Below are positions 4,944 through 55,867 of a stretch of DNA of 64,000 nucleotides, in pieces (within the stretch, counting starts at the first letter, position 1; each line of letters opens with the position of its first letter). The position numbers and the translations under genes are program-made. The stretch comes from an uncultured Clostridium sp. Its GTDB lineage: Bacteria > Bacillota > Clostridia > TANB77 > CAG-508. The DNA is taken from positions 52,620 to 116,619 of the forward strand of contig CAYJIP010000002.1 in NCBI GenBank assembly GCA_964370265.1. The letters run 5' to 3'. The notes beneath the pieces were generated by a model. The model had not been told where the DNA came from. It saw only the letters and a list, made by a program, of their open reading frames with translations, and made no database searches.

Positions 4944-5348
4944 TTATTTTTTGAATATTGACCAATAGATTTCTTCTTGATTTTTCCCCCAACATTTAGA
5001 AAAAATATATTTCCATAATTTTTCTATTAGTTTTTGAATATTTTCTTTTGGTTCATGTTCTTGATTTTCCGCTTCTTTAGTGTCACAATTTGAAATTTCA
5101 TAAATTAATGAAACTAAAAATTCAGCTGGAATGATTTTTTCTTTAATTTCTTCTTTGGTTTTAGATTTAAATGTATTAATTATATAATTTATACATTCAG
5201 TCTTATAATATTCTCGAGAATCAATTTGGTCTCCTGTGATTTCATACATTGCGTAAACCTTTTTATAGTTACAAGCAATATATAAATCACTTACAAATTT
5301 TTGTTCGTCATAACTTAGTTTTTTCTCTTTCATAATTTTCTCCTCCAT
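4944..5348 (-). CDS. hypothetical protein (134 aa)
   Basis: ORF with its own terminator. No motif recognised. Confidence 0.5.
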   Translation of the reverse strand: MEEKIMKEKKLSYDEQKFVSDLYIACNYKKVYAMYEITGDQIDSREYYKTECINYIINTFKSKTKEEIKEKIIPAEFLVSLIYEISNCDTKEAENQEHEPKENIQKLIEKLWKYIFSKCWGKNQEEIYWSIFKK

Positions 5349-7017: not shown

Positions 7018-7241
7018 TACCAAGTCCTCCCTTTTCTTTTGTGTATAATATTATATAAATATTTTTTTATGCTTTATTTTATGCATAAAATATAAAATAT
7101 TTGTAACTATTTTATCACAATTAACATAATTTTACAAGTCTACTGTATTAATGTTGTAATTAATGTAAATTGCAATATAATGGATTTATTTCCAGTTAAT
7201 TTTTATTTAATTTTCACTTAATGTTATTTTTATCACTACAC

Positions 7242-7323: not shown

Positions 7324-9336
7324 TCACTTAACATTTTTTATTACTTCACTAATAATATGTACAGCTTCTTTAATACCTATTTTTGAAACATCTATAACTA
7401 AATTATAGTTTTCAGAATCTGCCCACATCTTATCTGTATAGTACTCGTAATATTCTTTTCTTTTTGCATTTATTTCATTAATATTTTTCTCTATTTGATT
7501 TCTTGATTTAGATTTATCAGATTCTACTTTTTCATAACATCTGTCTATCATATAATCTATATCAGATGAGTAAATATATATTTTAAATGGATTCATTTCT
7601 TGTAATATGTAGTCGGAACATCTTCCTACGAATATCCCTCCATTTTGTTTTGATAATTTTAATATTAGTTCTCTATTTTGTTCAAATACATTCATACTTA
7701 AATCTTCATTAGGATTTGTAAAAGTATTTGCAAATGAGAAATTAAAACTTTTAGAATAATTAGTATCACTAAATTGTTTTAGCATTTCTTCCGATATTCC
7801 ATCTTCTACTAATATATTATTTAATATTTCTTTATCGTAATATGGCATATTTAATTCTTCTGATAATCTTTTAGCAATTTCTCTACCACCACTACCAAAC
7901 TGTCTGTTTACTGTTATTATCGTGTTTTTAGTATCTTTTATATTTTTATTATCTAAACTTTTTTCTTTTTTAATTTCACTATTATTTAAATCATTTTCTA
8001 TAATCTGTTCATCACTTTTACCATACATATATTTCTTTCTGTATTTAACAAAAAAGAATATTGATATAAATAACGCTATAAATTCTGCTATTGGTACTGC
8101 TACCCATACTCCTGTAATTCCGAAATATTTTGGAAGTACTAATATACAAATACTTATTAAACCTACTGTTCTAACAAAAGATATTATTGCTGATATTTTA
8201 CCATTTGAATATGCTGTAAACATTCCAGAGGCAAATACATTTATCCCTATAAATATGAACGAAATAGCGAAAATGCTTAATCCTTCTGTCGCTAAATTAT
8301 ATACATCTGTTCCTACTTCTGTAAAAATGCTTGCTAATGTATTTCTAAACAAGATAGATGCAACTAAACTTATTGCTGACATAATTAATATTATTTTAAT
8401 ACTATTTCTAAATATTTTCTGTAAATTTTCTTTTTGTTTTTGTCCATAAGAAAAACCTATTAAAGGTGCAATACCTATAGCATATCCCATAAATAGGGAA
8501 CTTAATAGGAATTGTATATATAGGATTACTGTTATTGCAGCAACACCTGAATTACCTACTAAAGTTAGCATTGCTTGATTAAATAAAAATGTAGTTACAG
8601 CTGTTGATAAATTTGTAACCATTTCTGACGAACCATTTATTGCCGCTTCTATTAGTGCTTTACCATCAAATTTTGGTTTTACAAAATGTAAAATTCTATT
8701 TTTTCTACCAAGCAAATATATTATCGATACTATAGATGGTATTAAATATGAGCAAGAAGCGGCTATGGCAGAACCTTGTATTCCTAATCCTACGATTTCT
8801 ATTAATACATATCCTAGTACAATTCTACTAACACCTCCAACAACCATTGATATTAAAAACAATGATGATTTTCTTACAGAAGCCATTATACTTAGGAAAA
8901 TAGTTTGTAATATCAATCCTGAGAAGAATATAGATATTGTTTTAACATAATCATATGCATATTGGTATGTTTCTTCATCAACACCTAATGCTCTGATAAT
9001 TGGATCTACAAATACTTGTACTAATATTGTAGCTATAATACCTAATACTATTCCTGTTAATACAAATAGAGTTAAATTTTCCTTTGCTTTTTGATTTTTA
9101 TTTTCTCCTAATAACTTTGAACATATAGCTGTACCTCCAGCACCTAACATTAATCCTATTGCTAATATGAAAGATGTTATTGGTAGTACTAAATTTATTG
9201 CTGATAATGCAGTTTCATTTATATAGTTTGATACAATTATACCATCTGCCATTACATAAATAGCTATAAATATCATTGTAGTCATGCTCGGTATTGTAAA
9301 TTTTAAAATATTTTTCATGTCATATTTTTTAATCAT
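7324..9336 (-). CDS. MATE-family efflux transporter fused to a C-terminal cytidylate-kinase-like (Cytidylate_kin2-type) domain
   Basis: The N-terminal ~450 aa are a polytopic MATE-like membrane domain. The C-terminal ~190 aa begin ITVNRQFGSGGREIAKRLSEELNMPYYDKEIL, the glycine-loop signature of the cytidylate-kinase-like family. Confidence 0.75.
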   Translation of the reverse strand: MIKKYDMKNILKFTIPSMTTMIFIAIYVMADGIIVSNYINETALSAINLVLPITSFILAIGLMLGAGGTAICSKLLGENKNQKAKENLTLFVLTGIVLGIIATILVQVFVDPIIRALGVDEETYQYAYDYVKTISIFFSGLILQTIFLSIMASVRKSSLFLISMVVGGVSRIVLGYVLIEIVGLGIQGSAIAASCSYLIPSIVSIIYLLGRKNRILHFVKPKFDGKALIEAAINGSSEMVTNLSTAVTTFLFNQAMLTLVGNSGVAAITVILYIQFLLSSLFMGYAIGIAPLIGFSYGQKQKENLQKIFRNSIKIILIMSAISLVASILFRNTLASIFTEVGTDVYNLATEGLSIFAISFIFIGINVFASGMFTAYSNGKISAIISFVRTVGLISICILVLPKYFGITGVWVAVPIAEFIALFISIFFFVKYRKKYMYGKSDEQIIENDLNNSEIKKEKSLDNKNIKDTKNTIITVNRQFGSGGREIAKRLSEELNMPYYDKEILNNILVEDGISEEMLKQFSDTNYSKSFNFSFANTFTNPNEDLSMNVFEQNRELILKLSKQNGGIFVGRCSDYILQEMNPFKIYIYSSDIDYMIDRCYEKVESDKSKSRNQIEKNINEINAKRKEYYEYYTDKMWADSENYNLVIDVSKIGIKEAVHIISEVIKNVK

Positions 9337-15618: not shown

Positions 15619-16071
15619 ATGAACACAAAATTAATAGCAAAAAACAGTACAGCTTATCATAATTATACTATAGAAAATAAGATGGAAGTTGGAATTGTTT
15701 TATCTGGTACAGAAATAAAATCATTAAGAGCTGGAAAAGTAAATTTTAAAGACTCTTATGCATATATTAAAGATGGAGAAATATATATATGTGGAATGCA
15801 TATTAGTCCATATGAATTTGGGAATATATTTAACAAAGACCCTCTACGTGATAGAAAACTATTATTACACAAACAAGAGATTTTTAAATTAATAGGACTT
15901 ACTCAACAAAAAGGATACAGCCTAATTCCTATTAGCATCTATTTCAAAGGTTCTTTAGTGAAAATAGATCTTGGTATTGGTAAAGGTAAAAAACTTTATG
16001 ATAAACGTAATGACATTGCTAAAAAAGATGCACAAAGAACTATTCAAATACATTTAAAGAATAACAGATAA
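15619..16071 (+). CDS. smpB: SsrA-binding protein SmpB
   Basis: NKSAYHNY-like start, [21 protein letters not shown]. Confidence 0.9.
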
Positions 16072-16117: not shown

Positions 16118-16164
16118 AAATAACCAAATAAAATAAGCATTATGCCTGTTTTATTTGGTTATTT
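16118..16164. terminator. bidirectional terminator (smpB / DGR cassette)
   Basis: aaataaccaaataaaa / ttttatttggttattt 16-bp perfect stem. Confidence 0.7.
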
Positions 16165-16187
16165 CTACTTTTATTGAATTATTTTCT

Positions 16188-16430
16188 CTAAATTATTTCA
16201 ATTATTTCTATTTCCATATTACTATCTATTTTTCCATATATACAAATATAGGTATTTTTCTTAAAATACCTATAACAAAAATCAGATATACCATTAATAG
16301 AATATACAAAAACTATTCCATTTTCTAATTCTACCTTGAATTTACATTTAGAATATGTTTTGGATTTATTAATAACAAACCTGTATTCAATATCACTCAC
16401 TATTTTTCCTGTTAAAAATACACTATTCAT
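16188..16430 (-). CDS. small OB-fold, SSB-like protein (80 aa), last gene of the DGR cassette
   Basis: MNSVFLTGKIVSDIEYRF...CKFKVELENG..VFVYSINGISDFCYRYFKKNTYICIYGKI follows the SSB/OB N-terminal pattern (MNxVxLxGxlxxDxExR ... KKGxxvxvxG). ATG at 16430 lies 5 nt after AGAGG. The track's longer ORF (to 16592) has no SD. Confidence 0.55.
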   Translation of the reverse strand: MNSVFLTGKIVSDIEYRFVINKSKTYSKCKFKVELENGIVFVYSINGISDFCYRYFKKNTYICIYGKIDSNMEIEIIEII

Positions 16431-16624
16431 TTTAACCTCTACATTAATTAATATATTTATATTTGTAATATATTCATTTTCAATACAAGAATATATATTT
16501 CTTTTATTTACTAACATATATATTACTGATTCATTTTTACCACTTAAGGATGGAATAAATCTCTTTAATACTAATATTATCACTGTATACATTCCTTAAA
16601 ATGTATAATCTCGATTCATATTAG
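16431..16624 (-). other. non-coding region immediately 3-prime of the TR (candidate DGR RNA spacer/priming region)
   Basis: 194 nt between the TR 3-prime end and the SD-supported start of the OB-fold ORF. Assigned by analogy with the Bordetella DGR, where the region 3-prime of the TR primes cDNA synthesis. Confidence 0.3.
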
Positions 16625-16756
16625 AGTACAGACCTAAAACCTATATTGCCATTAGTATTAGTGGGATTGTTGTTGTTTCTGTATGACGCTGGATTGTTCG
16701 AACCATTGTTGTTGTAATTACCTCCACGATTAACCGCTGGATTGTTAGTGTTAGAG
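16625..16756 (-). repeat. DGR template repeat (TR)
   Basis: Gap-free 132-bp alignment to 18865..18996 (offset 2240). All 16 mismatches have T on the plus strand (A on the coding strand) in this copy. It is non-coding; read in the VR frame it is Asn(AAY)-rich. Confidence 0.95.
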
Positions 16757-16801
16757 CTTTTGATTTATCCCAAAGTAAATTAATTTATACAAACTGTATA
16801 T

Positions 16802-17827
16802 TTACATATAAAACATAGTGTTTTCCAGATTCCAAGTATCTGCTATTTTCATATACCCTAAATGTCCTGCTAAATACTTTCTTGCTTCATAACAACTTAT
16901 TTCTCCATTTTTAACTTTCATTTTTAGTTTCTTAATCTTTTTCTTTAACTTTCGTTTCCCTTTATCTCTAATCTTAAGCCTATACTCATTTATTTTGTAT
17001 CCACAAAAATTAACTCCTTGTTTTCCTTTAAATATTTGTGTCTTACTATTTAACCTCAAACCTAATTTTATATCTAAAAACTCTGTTATTTTATTTAAAA
17101 TATCTTTTGCTTGTTGTTTTGTTTTTACAATTAAAACACTATCATCCATGTATCTAGCATAATACTTGATCTTTAATTCTTCTTTAATATATTTATCTAT
17201 TTCGTTTAAATATATATTAGCAAATATTTGAGATGTATAGTTACCTATTTCAATCCCAACTTCTTTTTTTTGTATATACAATATTTGCTTTATTAACCAC
17301 ATTACTTTTTTGTCTTTTATTTTTCTTTCTAATATTTTTATTAATATTTCCTTATTTATACTATCAAAATATTTAGCTACATCCATTTTTAATATATAGT
17401 ATTCTCCATATATGTTTTTAGCTTTTTTCATCATTTTTTGTACATATTCACAAGAACTATGCATTCCTTTGTTATTAATACATGCAAATGATGAATATAT
17501 AAACTTAGGAAAATATATTGGTTTTAATATATTATCTACTAACCATCTTTGTACTATTCTATCAATATATTTTGCTTTCTCTATTTTCCTTACTTTAGGT
17601 TCTGAAATATAGAATGTTGTATATGTACCATGACAATAACTCATATCAGATAATTTTTCATATAGCCATAATATATATTCCTCTTGCTTTAAATTAAATA
17701 AGATAATATCTTTCCTATATCCTTTTCCTTTTTTACTATCATTATGTGCTTTTATTAAAAGATCATATGTTAAAACTTTATCATAAACATTTTTAATTGT
17801 TTTTGCCATAAAATTTAACCATTCCAC
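16802..17827 (-). CDS. DGR reverse transcriptase
   Basis: Carries the RT motifs, including IGNYTSQIFANIYL ([I/L]GxxxSQ, the DGR hallmark) and the YMDD box (ARYMDDSVLIV). Alternative start ATG at 17809. Overlaps the avd stop. Confidence 0.95.
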   Translation of the reverse strand: MEWLNFMAKTIKNVYDKVLTYDLLIKAHNDSKKGKGYRKDIILFNLKQEEYILWLYEKLSDMSYCHGTYTTFYISEPKVRKIEKAKYIDRIVQRWLVDNILKPIYFPKFIYSSFACINNKGMHSSCEYVQKMMKKAKNIYGEYYILKMDVAKYFDSINKEILIKILERKIKDKKVMWLIKQILYIQKKEVGIEIGNYTSQIFANIYLNEIDKYIKEELKIKYYARYMDDSVLIVKTKQQAKDILNKITEFLDIKLGLRLNSKTQIFKGKQGVNFCGYKINEYRLKIRDKGKRKLKKKIKKLKMKVKNGEISCYEARKYLAGHLGYMKIADTWNLENTMFYM

Positions 17828-18158
17828 CTAATATTTTACCTATTTCATAAATTAATCCAATAGAAACATTAAATTTCTTTTCATCTATCCATTTATTCTT
17901 TTTCATTATCCTTAAATAAATTCTTTGTACATTTAATTTACTATCAATCCTGTTTAATATTTCTAAAACAAATATATTATCTTTTTTATTAATTTTTTCT
18001 AAATACAAAACATATTCTAACATTTCATACATGGATTTTTTAAAACTATTTCCAATACTAAATTTTTCTGTTCTAGGTAATTTAATTATACATTCAATCA
18101 TATACTCTATATATTTTTCACATTTAGGTATTAATTGTAATCTTTCACTTGTTTTCAT
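17793..18158 (-). CDS. avd: DGR accessory variability determinant (Avd, four-helix-bundle family)
   Basis: 121 aa, basic, helical. PRTEKFSIGNSFKKSMYEMLEYVLY ... IGKILGGMVKF matches the Avd / 23S-rRNA-IVS-protein pattern. Overlaps both neighbouring ORFs (coupled operon). Confidence 0.85.
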   Translation of the reverse strand: MKTSERLQLIPKCEKYIEYMIECIIKLPRTEKFSIGNSFKKSMYEMLEYVLYLEKINKKDNIFVLEILNRIDSKLNVQRIYLRIMKKNKWIDEKKFNVSIGLIYEIGKILGGMVKFYGKNN

Positions 18159-18591
18159 TTTCTAGTTCTTCTTTCAATTCATCTTGTTCCCACAATTTGC
18201 CTAAAGCTTCTAAATATTTTGTTTTTTCATATATAGCTTTAGATTTACATTCCATACAATTAATATTATTTGCAGAACTTTCAATTCTTTTCCCATCTTC
18301 CTTTTCACAAATTAAATTTAATTCTTCTTTTTCTGATATATATTTATATACAATATATGAATAATCTTTTTCATTTAACATGTCTATATATTTATCTAAA
18401 GATTTAATTGGAAATCCTACTTTACATACTCCTTTAGACATACAACTTAGTTTTAATCCTATAGCTTTATTTAATTCTATTGCATCTTTATGTGTAGCAA
18501 TATAGAAAATTCCTATTCCAACTAATACTATTTTACCTTCTTGTCTATCTTGTAATAATTCCATCATTCCTGTTAATGTCATCCCACACAT
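18145..18591 (-). CDS. MutS domain-I-like small protein (DGR accessory ORF)
   Basis: GMMELLQDRQEGKIVLVGIGIFYIATHKDAIELNKAIGLKLS..CKVGFPIKSLDKYIDMLNEKDYSYIVY aligns by eye with the MutS N-terminus in this window ([74 protein letters not shown]). SD AAAGGTGGA upstream. Confidence 0.65.
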   Translation of the reverse strand: MCGMTLTGMMELLQDRQEGKIVLVGIGIFYIATHKDAIELNKAIGLKLSCMSKGVCKVGFPIKSLDKYIDMLNEKDYSYIVYKYISEKEELNLICEKEDGKRIESSANNINCMECKSKAIYEKTKYLEALGKLWEQDELKEELENENK

Positions 18592-18615
18592 CCACCTTTC
18601 GTATTTGCTTTATAT

Positions 18616-18707
18616 GGGCACCATAAGGCTTAGAAACGGCTAATGGCGCCACACCAGTGACGCCACACCAGTGGCGAAAATTGCTTTCTGGCAAAATTTC
18701 ATTTTGC
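18616..18707 (-). other. GC-rich structured element (tandem 14-bp repeat / multiple hairpins) in the target-accessory intergenic region
   Basis: 14-bp direct repeat gcgccacaccagtg/acgccacaccagtg (18646..18673). Hairpins cgccac-acca-gtggcg (18661..18676) and gcaaaat-ttc-attttgc (18691..18707). 8-bp stem 18617-24/18643-50 whose single non-Watson-Crick pair is G-U only in the minus-strand RNA. Confidence 0.45.
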
Positions 18708-18857
18708 TAAAAACCAATTTTCGAACCACTTTGTGTTTATTTAATTTTAACCTTTTTACACATGATTTAGTATTTAAAATTTCTTTATTAAAATTCAAAT
18801 TTAATATAAACTCTAATTTAAGCTTTGATATAATCACGGTTATAGCTATCAGTACTA

Positions 18858-20210
18858 CTAATAAAGTACAGACCTAAAACCTATAACGCCATCAGTATTA
18901 GTGGGATAGTCGTTGTAGCTGTATGACGCTGGATGGACCGAACCATTGCTGTCGTAATCACCTCCACGATTAACCGCTGGAAAGTTAGTGCTAGAGTTTG
19001 TTTCTAATGTCCATTCCCATACATTTCCTGCTATGTCATTTATATTTAATATTTCCGAATTTCCTACTTCTCCTGCTGTTCCTATTCCACTTAATGTATC
19101 ATTAGAAGCAGTTCCTGTATAATTCCCTATAGTTGTACTATCGTTATTTAATGTTGCTACAGGTATGCTTCCTCTAATTTCCATAAATTTAAGTATTAAA
19201 TCCCATTGGAATCCAAACATTAAACTTCCTGTTGTTCCTTCTAAATTCATACTTTCTGCTTTAGTTTGAGAATTTTCTTTATTTATATTAATATATATCG
19301 TAGCTCCATATCCTGATACAGGTGTATTTGCAACTCCAGCTACTGTTGCATTTCCAACTTCATATCTTGATACCCAGAATCCTTCTTTTTCATATATACT
19401 TTTTAATACTGCATTTTTTTGTGTATTATATGTGTCTTCACTTGTAAATACTCCTGAATTAGCTCTATATTCATCTGAATACGTATAATTTCCATATTTC
19501 GGTGTCTTATATTCTGATGTATAGCTATTTATATTTTCCTCTATTTTTGTATAATCAGTTGATGATGTTACTCCTGAATTAATACTATCTTGTGGTACTT
19601 CTACCCATACCCATTCATTGTTATTTTTATTTGTATCAACCATTACTAAACCTTCATTTACACTATCTTCTGTTTCTTCTGTTGATACTTTACCACCTTC
19701 TGGTATTAATACTGTTTTTCCATCTGGATCAGTATATTCTTCTCCACCTGCTCCTGCTACATCACCTTTTGCTAATCCTTCTGTATCAGTTCCTGTTCCT
19801 CCTGAACTTGTTTCTCCAGGTTTTTTAACTTCTACTTCATATCCATTCATTTCTACTTTTATTGGATATTGAGTGTCTAATATATCTGTTGTTGTACTTG
19901 GTATATCTGAACCATCTGCTCCTGTTATTTTTGTTGCTCCTTCTTTAAATAGTTCTTCTACCATTGTTTTTTCATTTACTTTTCCTGTATTGTCATAACT
20001 TCCTAATATTGCTAATGTTACTTTTTCTTCTGCTTCTGCTCTTGCTGTTTCTTCTCCTGCTTTTGTTGCTTGAGTTAATATTCCATTTTCTCCTGTTAAC
20101 ATTGCTATTGATACTCCTGCTAATATTAGAAGTACAATTATTGTTATTACTAAGCTTATTAATGTAATACCTTTAGTTTGTTTTAAACTTATTTTTGTTT
20201 TTTCTTTCAT
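18858..20210 (-). CDS. DGR variable (target) protein: prepilin-like N-terminal TM segment + FGE/sulfatase-modifying-factor-like C-type lectin domain
   Basis: N-terminus MKEKTKISLKQTKGITLISLVITIIVLLILAGVSI (pilin-like). C-terminal motifs GFWVSRYEVG, FGFQWDLILKFM, AGNVWEWT, NRGGDY, IGFRSVLY. The VR occupies the last ~44 codons. Confidence 0.9.
   Translation of the reverse strand: MKEKTKISLKQTKGITLISLVITIIVLLILAGVSIAMLTGENGILTQATKAGEETARAEAEEKVTLAILGSYDNTGKVNEKTMVEELFKEGATKITGADGSDIPSTTTDILDTQYPIKVEMNGYEVEVKKPGETSSGGTGTDTEGLAKGDVAGAGGEEYTDPDGKTVLIPEGGKVSTEETEDSVNEGLVMVDTNKNNNEWVWVEVPQDSINSGVTSSTDYTKIEENINSYTSEYKTPKYGNYTYSDEYRANSGVFTSEDTYNTQKNAVLKSIYEKEGFWVSRYEVGNATVAGVANTPVSGYGATIYININKENSQTKAESMNLEGTTGSLMFGFQWDLILKFMEIRGSIPVATLNNDSTTIGNYTGTASNDTLSGIGTAGEVGNSEILNINDIAGNVWEWTLETNSSTNFPAVNRGGDYDSNGSVHPASYSYNDYPTNTDGVIGFRSVLY
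18865..18996 (-). repeat. DGR variable repeat (VR)
   Basis: See TR. Lies inside the 3-prime end of ORF 18858..20210. 16 substitutions relative to the TR, all at TR adenines, changing 13 residues. Confidence 0.95.
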
Positions 20211-20398
20211 TCTTATTTTCCTTTCTTTCGTATTTTTTGTTTTGTCTTTCTCTTTTTGTTTGATTTTTTGTTTTTACTTTGTTGTCTTTATTCTTACTCG
20301 TTTTGATAAATATATATTAATCACATCTTAATATTATATATTTTCTCTAAAGATATTAATTTTTCAATGTTCATTACATATATTTATCTCACACAAGT

Positions 20399-20427
20399 AT
20401 TATATCTCTAATATTTTTCAATTACAA
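20399..20427 (-). promoter_or_regulatory. candidate sigma-A promoter for the DGR target gene
   Basis: Minus strand TTGTAA - 17 nt - TATAAT, about 190 nt upstream of ATG 20210. Chance matches are common in AT-rich DNA. Confidence 0.3.
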
Positions 20428-54502: not shown

Positions 54503-55867
54503 TTAATATAAAACTACTCTAAATCCAACATCTTCTAAATATGATGTTGTTGAATGAATTCTTCTTGTTGCCACAGACCCTTGTGATTGTGTACCATTCA
54601 TTCCTGAAAGTAAATAATTTCCGCCTCTACTAACAATAGGATATTGAGAAGATGCATTACTATTTTCTAATGTGAATTCATAAGCATTTCCTGCTAAATC
54701 ATATATATTTAGTATTTCATTTGTCACATTATTCCCTGTAATTGTAGCTCCTGTAGTTAATAAGAATGCTGCATTTTGTGCTTTAGTTACACTACTTTCC
54801 ACAGTTAAATATTGTGGCATTCTTCCTGCTATATATTCTTGATATTTTCCACTTGTTAACTGATAACTTGTATTTCTGTGATTCCCTATATTCGTACTAT
54901 TAATTAATAGTGTACTTTCTTCCACATCACCTGAAATTTGCATAAATTTCAATATTAAATCCCATTGAAATCCGAACATTAGTGATGAATTATATTCTTC
55001 ATTGCTCAATGTTTTTGCAGCAGTAGTTGCTTGTCCTATTGTAACATAGTTATATACAAACTTATCTTTTTGTACTACCATTGTCGATATTTGGTTAGTG
55101 CTAGAACTAGAGTAATCTCTTTGTATTGTTTCACTTATACCTGATTCATATCTACCAACCCAAAATCCATTATATTCATATATACTTTCAAGTATAGCAT
55201 CTTTAACATCAGAATTTTCCGGATCTGTGTGTACCTCTTTTTTATATGCTGATACATATCTATTTATATCTTCTTCTATCTTATCGTGGTCACTTATTTT
55301 TGTATCTTCACTAAATTCTTCTTCTGGCATAGGAATCCATACAAATTCGTTCCCGTCTAGCGTCATTACTAAACCTTCTTCTATTTCATCTTCATCTGTA
55401 TTTGGTGATAAAATGGCTCCATCTGGTAAAAACACATCTGGATAAATAGCTGTTGTTCCCATACTATCTGGTTTTTCAACTTCTATATCATATCCATCTA
55501 CTGTTACTGTTATTGGATAATCATTATCCGGCAAGTCTAAAGTCCCTTCTGGTACATTACCTGTTTCTAATCCAGTTATTTTTTCTGATATTTTCCAAAG
55601 TTCTTCTAATAACTTTGATTCTACTAAATCTCCTGAATTATTATGACTTCCTAATATTGCAACTTTAACTTTTTCTTCTGCTGCTGCTTTTTTTGATTCA
55701 GATGATGAATCTTCTGCTTGATTTAATATTCCATTATCTCCTGTTAATAAACCTATTGATACCCCTGCTAGTATTAGAAGTACTATTATTGTTATAACAA
55801 GTGATATAAGCGTTATCCCCTTATTTTTGTTCATTTTTTGTCTTTCTTTTAAAGTTTCTTTTCTCAT
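54503..55867 (-). CDS. pilin-like N-terminus + FGE/C-type-lectin-like protein, paralog of the DGR target (no match to this TR)
   Basis: KGITLISLVITIIVLLILAGVSIGLLTGDNGIL, GFWVGRYESG, SLMFGFQWDLILKFM, AGNAYEFT and VGFRVVLY all parallel ORF 18858..20210. Confidence 0.85.
   Translation of the reverse strand: MRKETLKERQKMNKNKGITLISLVITIIVLLILAGVSIGLLTGDNGILNQAEDSSSESKKAAAEEKVKVAILGSHNNSGDLVESKLLEELWKISEKITGLETGNVPEGTLDLPDNDYPITVTVDGYDIEVEKPDSMGTTAIYPDVFLPDGAILSPNTDEDEIEEGLVMTLDGNEFVWIPMPEEEFSEDTKISDHDKIEEDINRYVSAYKKEVHTDPENSDVKDAILESIYEYNGFWVGRYESGISETIQRDYSSSSTNQISTMVVQKDKFVYNYVTIGQATTAAKTLSNEEYNSSLMFGFQWDLILKFMQISGDVEESTLLINSTNIGNHRNTSYQLTSGKYQEYIAGRMPQYLTVESSVTKAQNAAFLLTTGATITGNNVTNEILNIYDLAGNAYEFTLENSNASSQYPIVSRGGNYLLSGMNGTQSQGSVATRRIHSTTSYLEDVGFRVVLY

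Follow-up and report, generated by a model that had tools for sequence, protein, structure and literature searches.

A chromosomal diversity-generating retroelement with an RT-14 RNA in a gut Clostridia bacterium

Within a 64-kb window of contig CAYJIP010000002.1, from a low-GC (25%) gut Clostridia bacterium, positions 16118-20427 of the minus strand very probably (at a rough probability of 0.88) represent a complete, chromosomally encoded diversity-generating retroelement (DGR) of gut Clostridia. The cassette is ordered as a target gene with a variable repeat (VR) at its 3' end, a leader, the MutS-like gene msl, the accessory variability determinant gene avd, a reverse transcriptase (RT) gene, a template repeat (TR), an RNA of the RT-14 family and a small gene resembling those for single-stranded DNA-binding proteins (SSBs). 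This minus-strand order, with the TR downstream of the RT, is the one proposed in a first-pass annotation of the same DNA, and all five open reading frames (ORFs) of the cassette are intact. The principal features are as follows.

18858..20210, minus strand: target (variable-protein) gene, 450 aa, with an N-terminal pilin-like helix and a C-terminal C-type-lectin/FGE domain containing the VR
18865..18996, minus strand: VR, the final 44 codons of the target gene
18145..18582, minus strand: msl, MutS-like accessory gene (Pfam MutS_I), likely start at the second ATG, 18582
17793..18158, minus strand: avd (Pfam bAvd, 2.1e-17)
16802..17827, minus strand: DGR reverse transcriptase with motifs IGNYTSQ and YMDD, start GTG 17827 or ATG 17809
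16625..16756, minus strand: TR, non-coding, with 49 adenines and 17 AAY codons in the VR frame
16488..16626, minus strand: RT-14 RNA (Rfam RF02921), a match to the whole model (positions 1-144 of 144) at 92.2 bits, gathering score 48.1
16188..16430, minus strand: SSB-like OB-fold gene, 80 aa (MNSVFLTGKIV...), a candidate DGR accessory gene

The repeat pair, the reverse transcriptase and related loci

Computed alignment of 16625-16756 with 18865-18996 (132 nt each) was gapless at a constant offset of 2240 nt, reproducing the TR/VR pair of the first-pass annotation. A repeat search also recovered the pair (16619-16759 / 18859-18999, 87%), and no direct repeat in the region was larger. The copies differ at 16 positions, in exact agreement with those listed previously (16646, 16647, 16653, 16668, 16671, 16677, 16678, 16695, 16697, 16698, 16709, 16713, 16719, 16742, 16743 and 16751). 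At each of them the 16.6-kb copy has T on the plus strand, corresponding to A on the coding minus strand, and the 18.9-kb copy has A, C or G on the plus strand, giving a coding-strand spectrum from TR to VR of 8 A>G, 6 A>T and 2 A>C. The minus-strand TR is composed of 49 A, 32 T, 30 C and 21 G. Sixteen of the 49 adenines are changed in the VR, the proportion of about one third that had been estimated by hand, and the computed alignment, put forward earlier as the check for substitutions at other bases, contains none at the 83 non-adenine positions. Were mismatches placed at random, all 16 would land on A with a probability of 2.1e-8 (hypergeometric) or 1.3e-7 (binomial).

The VR occupies codons 406-449 of the 450-aa target ORF, consistent with its earlier assignment to the last ~44 codons. 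Both peptide translations given previously were correct, as were the 13 residues that differ between them (S407, F410, D418, D420, S421, V425, H426, S431, Y432, D434, Y435, D440 and V442). When read in the VR frame, the TR has AAY at 17 of 43 codons, and codon positions 1-2 account for 42 of its 49 adenines. The TR itself starts 46 nt past the RT stop codon and is non-coding, as had been stated, with no ORF of at least 50 aa overlapping it. An adenine-masked scan identified no further VR for this TR in the whole window, nor in the paralogue of the target gene at 54503-55867 described below.

The RT ORF matches Pfam RVT_1 (9.5e-19). Among solved structures its best match, and the sole one over its full length (residues 7-336), is the bRT of the Bordetella phage element (8ub7, 5.9e-42), with IGNYTSQ aligned opposite IGSLTSQ and YMDD opposite YMDD. 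Matches to the group II RT GsI-IIC (3.8e-22) and to the retron RTs Ec83 and Ec78 (8.6e-6 or weaker) followed, and NCBIfam models for group II RTs (125 bits, cutoff 300) and retron RTs were matched below threshold. DGR RTs are recognized by a motif 4 of the form [ILV]GxxxSQ together with a YxDD catalytic motif. By its sequence, the RT is of the DGR type, in line with the hallmark motifs noted in the first-pass annotation. No second RT was found in the window, where a further match to the [ILV]GxxxSQ expression, near position 507, is without YxDD. The Avd-like ORF scored above the Pfam cutoff for bAvd (64 bits, cutoff 40) and was also matched by the NCBIfam model DivGenRetAVD (4.5e-19, 68.7 bits, under the curated cutoff of 80); about 74% of DGRs have Avd. 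Searches for exact copies of the RT sequence, with two alternative starts, and of Avd matched no other contig.

A scan for related RTs, with one genome taken per species, yielded 298 relatives in bacterial genomes, of which 80 were kept for comparison. These RTs are 58-69% identical to that of the window and derive from gut or animal-associated metagenome-assembled genomes (MAGs) of uncultured Clostridia/Bacillota, several of which carry two or three cassettes (one MAG from chicken gut, for instance, has L003, L027 and L043). The order target-msl-avd-RT-TR-RNA recurs in most of the related loci examined. Across the 80 loci avd is conserved in 79, msl in 65 and a target homologue in 56, and an RT-14 profile match lies just downstream of the RT in 74 of the 78 with enough sequence. 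Self-comparison identified TR/VR pairs in 54 of the 80 loci. When their mismatches were pooled with those of the window and sorted by TR base, 1096 fell on A, 65 on C, 26 on T and 8 on G. C>T cases number 58, mostly at a fixed TR/VR boundary difference that is present in all loci (TR ...ACU/CUAAU versus VR ...ACT/TTAT, the slash marking the boundary).

Evidence for recent A-specific turnover of the VR was obtained from two pairs of near-identical cassettes located in different MAGs. L001 and L003, whose cassettes are 99.2% identical, have identical TRs and 23 VR differences, all at TR adenines; L070 and L076 likewise have identical TRs, with 25 of 26 VR differences at TR adenines. In these pairs the rate of difference is 17-18% in the VR and 2-4% elsewhere in the cassette. 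In a further locus, L065, the TR (7024-7160) matches two VRs (5031-5167 and 8941-9074) lying upstream and downstream of the cassette, which suggests that this locus diversifies two target genes.

The RT-14 RNA and the duplex that brackets the template

The RNA that follows the TR contains the elements listed below.

16624-16618 with 16577-16571, minus strand: RT-14 helix P1, beginning exactly where TR/VR identity ends
16607-16586, minus strand: RT-14 9-bp stem with a UAAG tetraloop, directly 3' of the TR
16561-16551, minus strand: RT-14 linker, the 3' arm of the bracketing duplex, which pairs with 16772-16762
16762..16772, minus strand: 5' arm of the bracketing duplex, UGGGAUAAAUC, upstream of the TR

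The first two bases of RT-14 are the last two of the TR, and beyond the elements above the RNA also contains a long 3' hairpin. A similar junction is found among the relatives, for which Rfam places the start of RT-14 between 1 and 5 nt before the end of TR/VR homology in 15 of 15 loci. RNAalifold analysis of 52 sequences recovered the 9-bp stem, with a UAAG or UACG tetraloop, and the long 3' hairpin, each with many compensatory changes. In two related loci the TR and RT-14 lie upstream of the RT (L032: TR 402-535, RT-14 529-691, RT 1053-2063; L073: TR 790-919, RT-14 909-1034, RT 1152-2153), which suggests that the TR-RNA module has moved as a unit within the lineage. RT-14 was one of the motifs RT-1 to RT-19 of Weinberg et al. 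2017, of which RT-10 alone was tied to a DGR, as the spacer of BPP-1, the others being left open between retrons and DGRs. Given its position 3' of the TR, RT-14 is interpreted here as the spacer (Sp) RNA of the DGR.

A second pairing joins RT-14 to sequence on the far side of the template. The segment (A)GGGAUAAAUC, which ends 3-4 nt before the TR, was paired by RNAduplex with the RT-14 linker GAUUUAUUCC(U) in nearly every locus. The alignment used to examine this duplex was anchored by sequence similarity and not by complementarity. Over its 42 distinct sequences, 99.6% of cells are standard pairs, and in 7 of the 11 pairs both partners have changed. No shuffle out of 500 equalled the observed alignment on any measure, and pairing fell to 45-65% when the partner was shifted by 1-3 columns. 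In the window all 11 pairs are intact, as are the RT-14 helices, and the duplex carries a compensatory variant, U:A where most loci have A:U. Both the minimum free energy and the centroid folds of the window sequence alone also recover the bracketing duplex.

These arrangements resemble those described for the Bordetella phage element, where the spacer of the bRT-Avd/Sp RNA complex cis-primes cDNA synthesis. An Avd-binding stem-loop lies just downstream of the TR in the solved bRT-Avd-RNA complex and in 207 other DGRs (10.1101/2023.10.23.563531). This stem is commonly of 9 bp with a tetraloop cap, and the sequences upstream and downstream of the TR form a duplex (10.1101/2023.10.23.563531). 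Helix P1 may be the template:primer duplex, because it starts where TR/VR identity ends, just as the first templated base of BPP-1 lies immediately 5' of the TR:Sp duplex (Handa et al., 10.1101/2023.10.23.563531). Relative to Rfam, the window RNA is a full-length member of RT-14, with the differences that the linker drawn as single-stranded in the model pairs with pre-TR sequence outside the model and that RT-14 here abuts the TR.

At the other repeat, the VR 3' boundary region (18844..18869, minus strand) contains short inverted repeats, GTACT (18869-18865) and AGTAC (18856-18852), one on either side of the target gene's stop codon. The second falls within the motif GTAGnACTGAnnnCT (18858-18844, minus strand), located 3-12 nt past that stop codon and conserved in a 55-locus alignment, part of which can pair with the last VR bases. 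A VR-end stem of at least 5 bp is present in 23 of 50 loci, compared with 9.4 expected from shuffles, which gives weak support. By analogy, the region may correspond to the hairpin/cruciform that follows the VR in BPP-1. DGRs are expected to have an initiation of mutagenic homing (IMH) element at the VR 3' end and a differing IMH* in the TR. In the window the last ~17 nt of the VR are relatively GC-rich, and neither a (GC)14 element nor a GC-rich 8-bp stem is present at the VR end.

Taken against the BPP-1 DGR (mtd-avd-TR-brt), the window cassette shares an RT homologous over its full length with IGxxxSQ and YMDD motifs, Avd, adenine-specific TR/VR differences, a VR at the 3' end of a gene for a C-type-lectin fold, a structured RNA that directly follows the TR and bears a tetraloop stem-loop, and pairing between sequences upstream and downstream of the TR. 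It differs in the placing of the TR and its RNA, after the RT here and between avd and the RT in BPP-1; in belonging to RNA family RT-14 and not RT-10; in having the additional msl and SSB-like genes and a chromosomal rather than phage location; in a target that is a pilin-like cell-surface protein and not a tail-fibre tip; and in being without a clear (GC)14 IMH element or GC-rich 8-bp cruciform. The contrast in TR order drawn by the first-pass annotation is correct, but the avd-RT-TR arrangement had already been catalogued (Wu et al. 2018).

The target protein, accessory genes and surroundings

The target protein begins with KG/ITLISLVITIIVLLILAGVSI, the slash placed as in the motif given next, a hydrophobic segment that resembles a class III (prepilin) signal, defined as G/[FMILV]-T-L-x-E followed by a hydrophobic helix (Pfam N_methyl, TIGR02532). 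An AlphaFold (AF2) model built on 70 homologues has a pLDDT of 85 and a long helix at residues 4-39. At the C-terminal end, residues 387-447 match Pfam FGE-sulfatase with an E-value of 3e-4 (20.9 bits, under the cutoff of 23.3). Foldseek searches of the PDB with the model returned TaqVP (5vf4) first, then FGE enzymes, TvpA (2y3c) and Mtd (1yu*). The Pfam match and the model both support a C-type-lectin/FGE fold around the VR, as seen in variable proteins of other DGRs. Like TaqVP, TvpA and Mtd, the target has its variable residues in a C-terminal segment of this fold; it differs from them in sequence (9-18% identity), in its N-terminal long hydrophobic helix and in a distinct middle domain. 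Homologues are named 'type II secretion system protein' or 'FGE.../PilE' in their source records, and no pilus assembly genes were seen beside the target gene. Judged by its sequence, the target is termed pilin-like here and is not classed among the pilins. G-type pilin domains have been noted as rare DGR targets.

A second gene of this kind lies at 54503-55867 (minus strand). Its 454-aa product is 38% identical to the target, with which it shares the N-terminal KGITLISLVITIIVLLILAGVSI and the ...GFRVVLY end. It has the same FGE/CLec fold and scores 18.4 bits against N_methyl, under the cutoff of 21.2. The gene is without DNA similarity to the TR, and without an RT, Avd or RT-14 nearby, and it appears to be a paralogue that is not itself diversified. 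A large 90% cluster of target homologues (P0105, 47 members) was considered as a source of population variation in the VR and was rejected, as it proved to be a static paralogue with no adjacent DGR and with substitutions spread along the protein; it serves as a negative control.

The mechanical ORF of msl begins at 18591, giving a product of 145-148 aa depending on the start, and alignments of homologues in related loci begin at residue 4. The MutS-like character reported in the first-pass annotation was borne out by a match to Pfam MutS_I (1.6e-6, 28.8 bits, cutoff 20.6) and by a family profile of 44 members that aligns with domain I of Taq (Thermus) MutS, residues 22-97. The mismatch-wedge Phe of the MutS GDFYE motif is invariant in the family (GIFY in the window, with G24 and F26 invariant), and a hydrophobic residue replaces the Glu of the MutS F-x-E motif. 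Four Cys residues (C47, C53, C109 and C112) that are not found in MutS are invariant or nearly so, and their conservation suggests that the family may carry a metal site. As defined by Wu et al. 2018, MSL proteins are of 112-283 aa with homology to MutS domain I and occur in DGRs that have avd and are without HRDC; no Pfam match to HRDC was found at the window cassette. The MSL gene, its co-occurrence with avd and the avd-RT-TR order correspond to architectures D and B2 of that work (PMC5758913). With the MSL DGRs of architecture D, from Legionella pneumophila and Bacteroides (Bfr/Bth/Bun), the window shares a small MutS-domain-I gene with avd and no HRDC, and a cellular surface or adhesin target. 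It differs from them in its Clostridia host, in a target that is type IV pilin-like and not a type V pilin or lipoprotein, in a conserved SSB-like gene in the lineage that is absent from the papers searched, and in an MSL with four conserved Cys.

Upstream of msl, the leader that separates it from the VR contains tandem 14-nt hairpin-forming repeats (18647..18674, minus strand), CCACTGGTGTGGCG followed by TCACTGGTGTGGCG. The repeats are conserved in 19 aligned loci and each can fold into a hairpin of 4-5 bp. Their stems show compensatory changes among loci (CCAC/GTGG, CCCC/GGGG, TCCC/GGGA), with loops that are identical within a locus. No credible Rfam family was found for the repeats or the leader, even at permissive thresholds. 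They could be an attenuator or a protein-binding site controlling the msl-avd-RT operon.

For the small gene at the end of the cassette, the first-pass annotation had described an OB-fold ORF of 134 aa (16188-16592). The OB-fold assignment stood, with a resemblance to SSBs, but the ORF was over-extended, because its first 54 codons lie on RT-14 and homologues align from the internal Met at 16430; the actual gene encodes 80 aa. This Met is preceded by a GAGG ribosome-binding site, and homologue alignments start at its residue 1. The window protein scores 16.4 bits against Pfam SSB (PF00436; cutoff 26), and a single-sequence AF2 model of it is unreliable (pLDDT 42). At the level of the family, weak SSB matches were obtained for 39 of 50 members (best 5e-7) and tRNA_anti-codon OB matches for 19 of 50, and the best PDB matches of the family profile are SSBs (7r4w, E 0.02). 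A word-indexed homology search with the 80-aa protein returned the window's own gene alone, and an exhaustive HMMER search identified 108 representative clusters, most of 72-120 aa.

A homologue of the small gene is present on the same strand, a median of 63 nt past RT-14, in 54 of the 75 loci with enough sequence. Three clusters of the family were also picked without reference to the RT; in both of the two with upstream sequence, the gene directly follows MutS_I-bAvd-RVT_1, with a gap of 500-670 nt from RVT_1 that fits a TR and RT-14. A full-text search, which did not extend to the supplementary 'potential accessory genes' of Wu et al., turned up no publication in which an SSB or OB-fold gene is connected with DGRs. 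The 80-aa gene is therefore presented as a candidate DGR accessory gene whose product, from its sequence relationships, may bind single-stranded DNA. In five related loci (L041, L053, L060, L071 and L078) the MutS-like gene is encoded downstream, on the strand opposite to the cassette, and four of the five have no detectable homologue of the 80-aa gene. These five may form a separate sub-lineage.

The cassette is flanked by smpB and Sua5 on one side and by a DUF1980/ZnuBCA/Fur cluster on the other; Ham1 is also among these housekeeping neighbours. No phage genes were found among the flanks, and none of the window's flanking genes is shared with the related loci. Isolate phages carry only distant DGR RTs, at most 36% identical, and the IMG/VR viral collection contains one relative, compared with the 298 in bacterial genomes. 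The element is a cellular, chromosomal DGR. The gene smpB (15619-16071, plus strand) is convergent with the cassette, which ends just downstream of it. Between the two lies an AT-rich 23-nt inverted repeat (16118..16164, no strand assigned) with 91% complementarity (I21), likely the shared transcription end of smpB and the cassette; a strict terminator scan returned no terminator in the region, this repeat included. At the opposite end of the cassette, a promoter-like site (TTGTAA-17-TATAAT, 20399..20427, minus strand) was identified by a consensus scan alone, with 10 of 12 matches, which is not evidence of function. No tmRNA was detected in the 64 kb by ARAGORN and Rfam, nor any tRNA or rRNA gene.

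Proposed mechanism, alternative readings and significance

In the mechanism proposed for the cassette, the TR would be transcribed with its flanks, and the 11-bp duplex formed between the site 3-4 nt upstream of the TR and the RT-14 linker, for which covariation argues, would close the TR into a loop. RT-14 would then provide two elements whose roles are assigned by analogy: the 9-bp tetraloop hairpin 3' of the TR, whose counterpart in the Bordetella phage element is bound by Avd, and helix P1, as in the bRT-Avd/Sp RNA. The RT-Avd complex would copy the TR into cDNA with misincorporation opposite adenines, to which the footprint of 16 out of 16 mismatches at A points. Replacement of the VR by this cDNA would recode up to ~25 codons of the ligand-binding face of the C-type lectin and, as the lectin domain is carried on a pilin-like surface protein, binding specificity would change. 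MSL might act on the mismatched cDNA:VR heteroduplex and the SSB-like protein might coat the single-stranded cDNA. Such a role for MSL is plausible given that, in Bacteroides, where msl-bearing DGRs diversify pilus tips, deletion of the host mutS raised retrohoming 5- to 10-fold (10.1101/2024.11.15.621889).

Several observations weigh against this account of an active DGR with a pilin-like target. The roles proposed for RT-14 P1, MSL and the SSB-like protein were assigned by analogy, and the IMH-like element and VR-end hairpin are weakly supported by the stem counts given above. A U-run follows the tandem hairpins of the leader in most relatives and is missing from the window leader; most relatives also have a long U/A-flanked hairpin downstream of the tandem hairpins that is not found in the window. 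Neither a near-identical copy of the window locus nor population data for it turned up in the collections searched. Two metagenome scans with adenine-masked TR/VR patterns gave, in one case, no matches and, in the other, three chance matches in an unrelated gene. With regard to the target, its N_methyl score is 12.9 bits (cutoff 21.2) and its N terminus, KG/ITLIS, has Ser and not Glu at +5. This atypical class III motif, with its sub-threshold Pfam score, also sets the protein apart from the modular type IV pilins of monoderms such as Streptococcus sanguinis PilB, which it resembles, as they are described in PMC8179133, in joining an N-terminal pilin-like segment to a grafted C-terminal binding module.

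Some of these points would be accommodated if the cassette were structurally intact but silent, a fossil DGR whose VR was diversified earlier and is now fixed, with the cassette repressed or decaying. The window locus offers no evidence of variation, its leader departs from that of most relatives just after the tandem hairpins, and some characterized Bacteroides DGRs are tightly controlled (10.1101/2024.11.15.621889). Decay is harder to reconcile with five intact ORFs, a TR that retains 49 adenines and 17 AAY codons, and the preservation of all 11 bracketing-duplex pairs and the RT-14 helices. The absence of any non-adenine TR/VR difference over 132 nt argues against long neutral decay, and relatives show recent A-specific VR turnover. 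A silent element is accordingly considered unlikely. As no near-identical genome was found, it is from the intactness of the cassette and the behaviour of its relatives that we infer the window locus to be currently active.

Carriage by a prophage, with diversification of a phage receptor-binding protein as in BPP-1, would be in keeping with the many gut DGRs that are phage-carried (Roux et al., 10.1101/2020.04.01.020958) and with the single relative on an IMG/VR contig. It is very improbable here given flanks of Sua5, SmpB, ZnuABC, Fur and Ham1 with no phage genes, relatives that number 298 in bacterial contigs against one viral, best isolate-phage matches of at most 36% identity, and a target with a pilin-like anchor and a static chromosomal paralogue. 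The reading of the repeats as an ordinary segmental duplication of a gene 3' end near an unrelated retron or group II RT, with mismatches on A by chance, can draw on the sub-threshold NCBIfam group II and retron matches and on public phage records that label similar RTs 'retron-type'. This candidate was rejected as scarcely credible: the chance of 16 out of 16 mismatches at A is ~2e-8, bRT is the best and sole full-length match by 20 orders of magnitude over group II RTs, Avd is present, Rfam finds no group II intron or retron RNA family, and the arrangement and its adenine bias recur in 54 related loci. A complete, chromosomal DGR is thus the preferred reading.

DGRs are a well-studied class, very common in gut bacteria, and as a standard member the window element leaves the picture of the class unchanged. 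What goes beyond the searched literature is the assignment of RT-14 to a DGR lineage, the arm upstream of the TR that lies outside the Rfam model, and the recurrent SSB-like gene. The orphan family RT-14 becomes readable as the spacer RNA of one DGR lineage, and its model should gain the arm upstream of the TR, because covariation shows this arm to pair with the RT-14 linker. Together, RT-14 and the arm would provide another case, unrelated in sequence, of the architecture seen in the solved RNA of the Bordetella phage element. It is possible, though we hold the view only tentatively and think it rather less than an even chance, that the lineage represents an undescribed DGR sub-architecture, combining an SSB-like and MutS-domain-I kit for handling cDNA, a scaffold of RT-14 and the upstream arm, and a pilin-like adhesin whose tip is varied in gut commensals.

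The SSB-like gene is a candidate for an accessory role in what becomes of the cDNA, a stage that is poorly understood. If it is true that the SSB-like protein and MSL act in cDNA integration, the cassette would offer a compact, genetically separable system for the unresolved step of retrohoming. For the organisms themselves, pilin-like targets with lectin tips in abundant uncultured gut Clostridia suggest that Gram-positive commensals vary their adhesion in a programmed way, much as Bacteroides does through its type V pilus tips.

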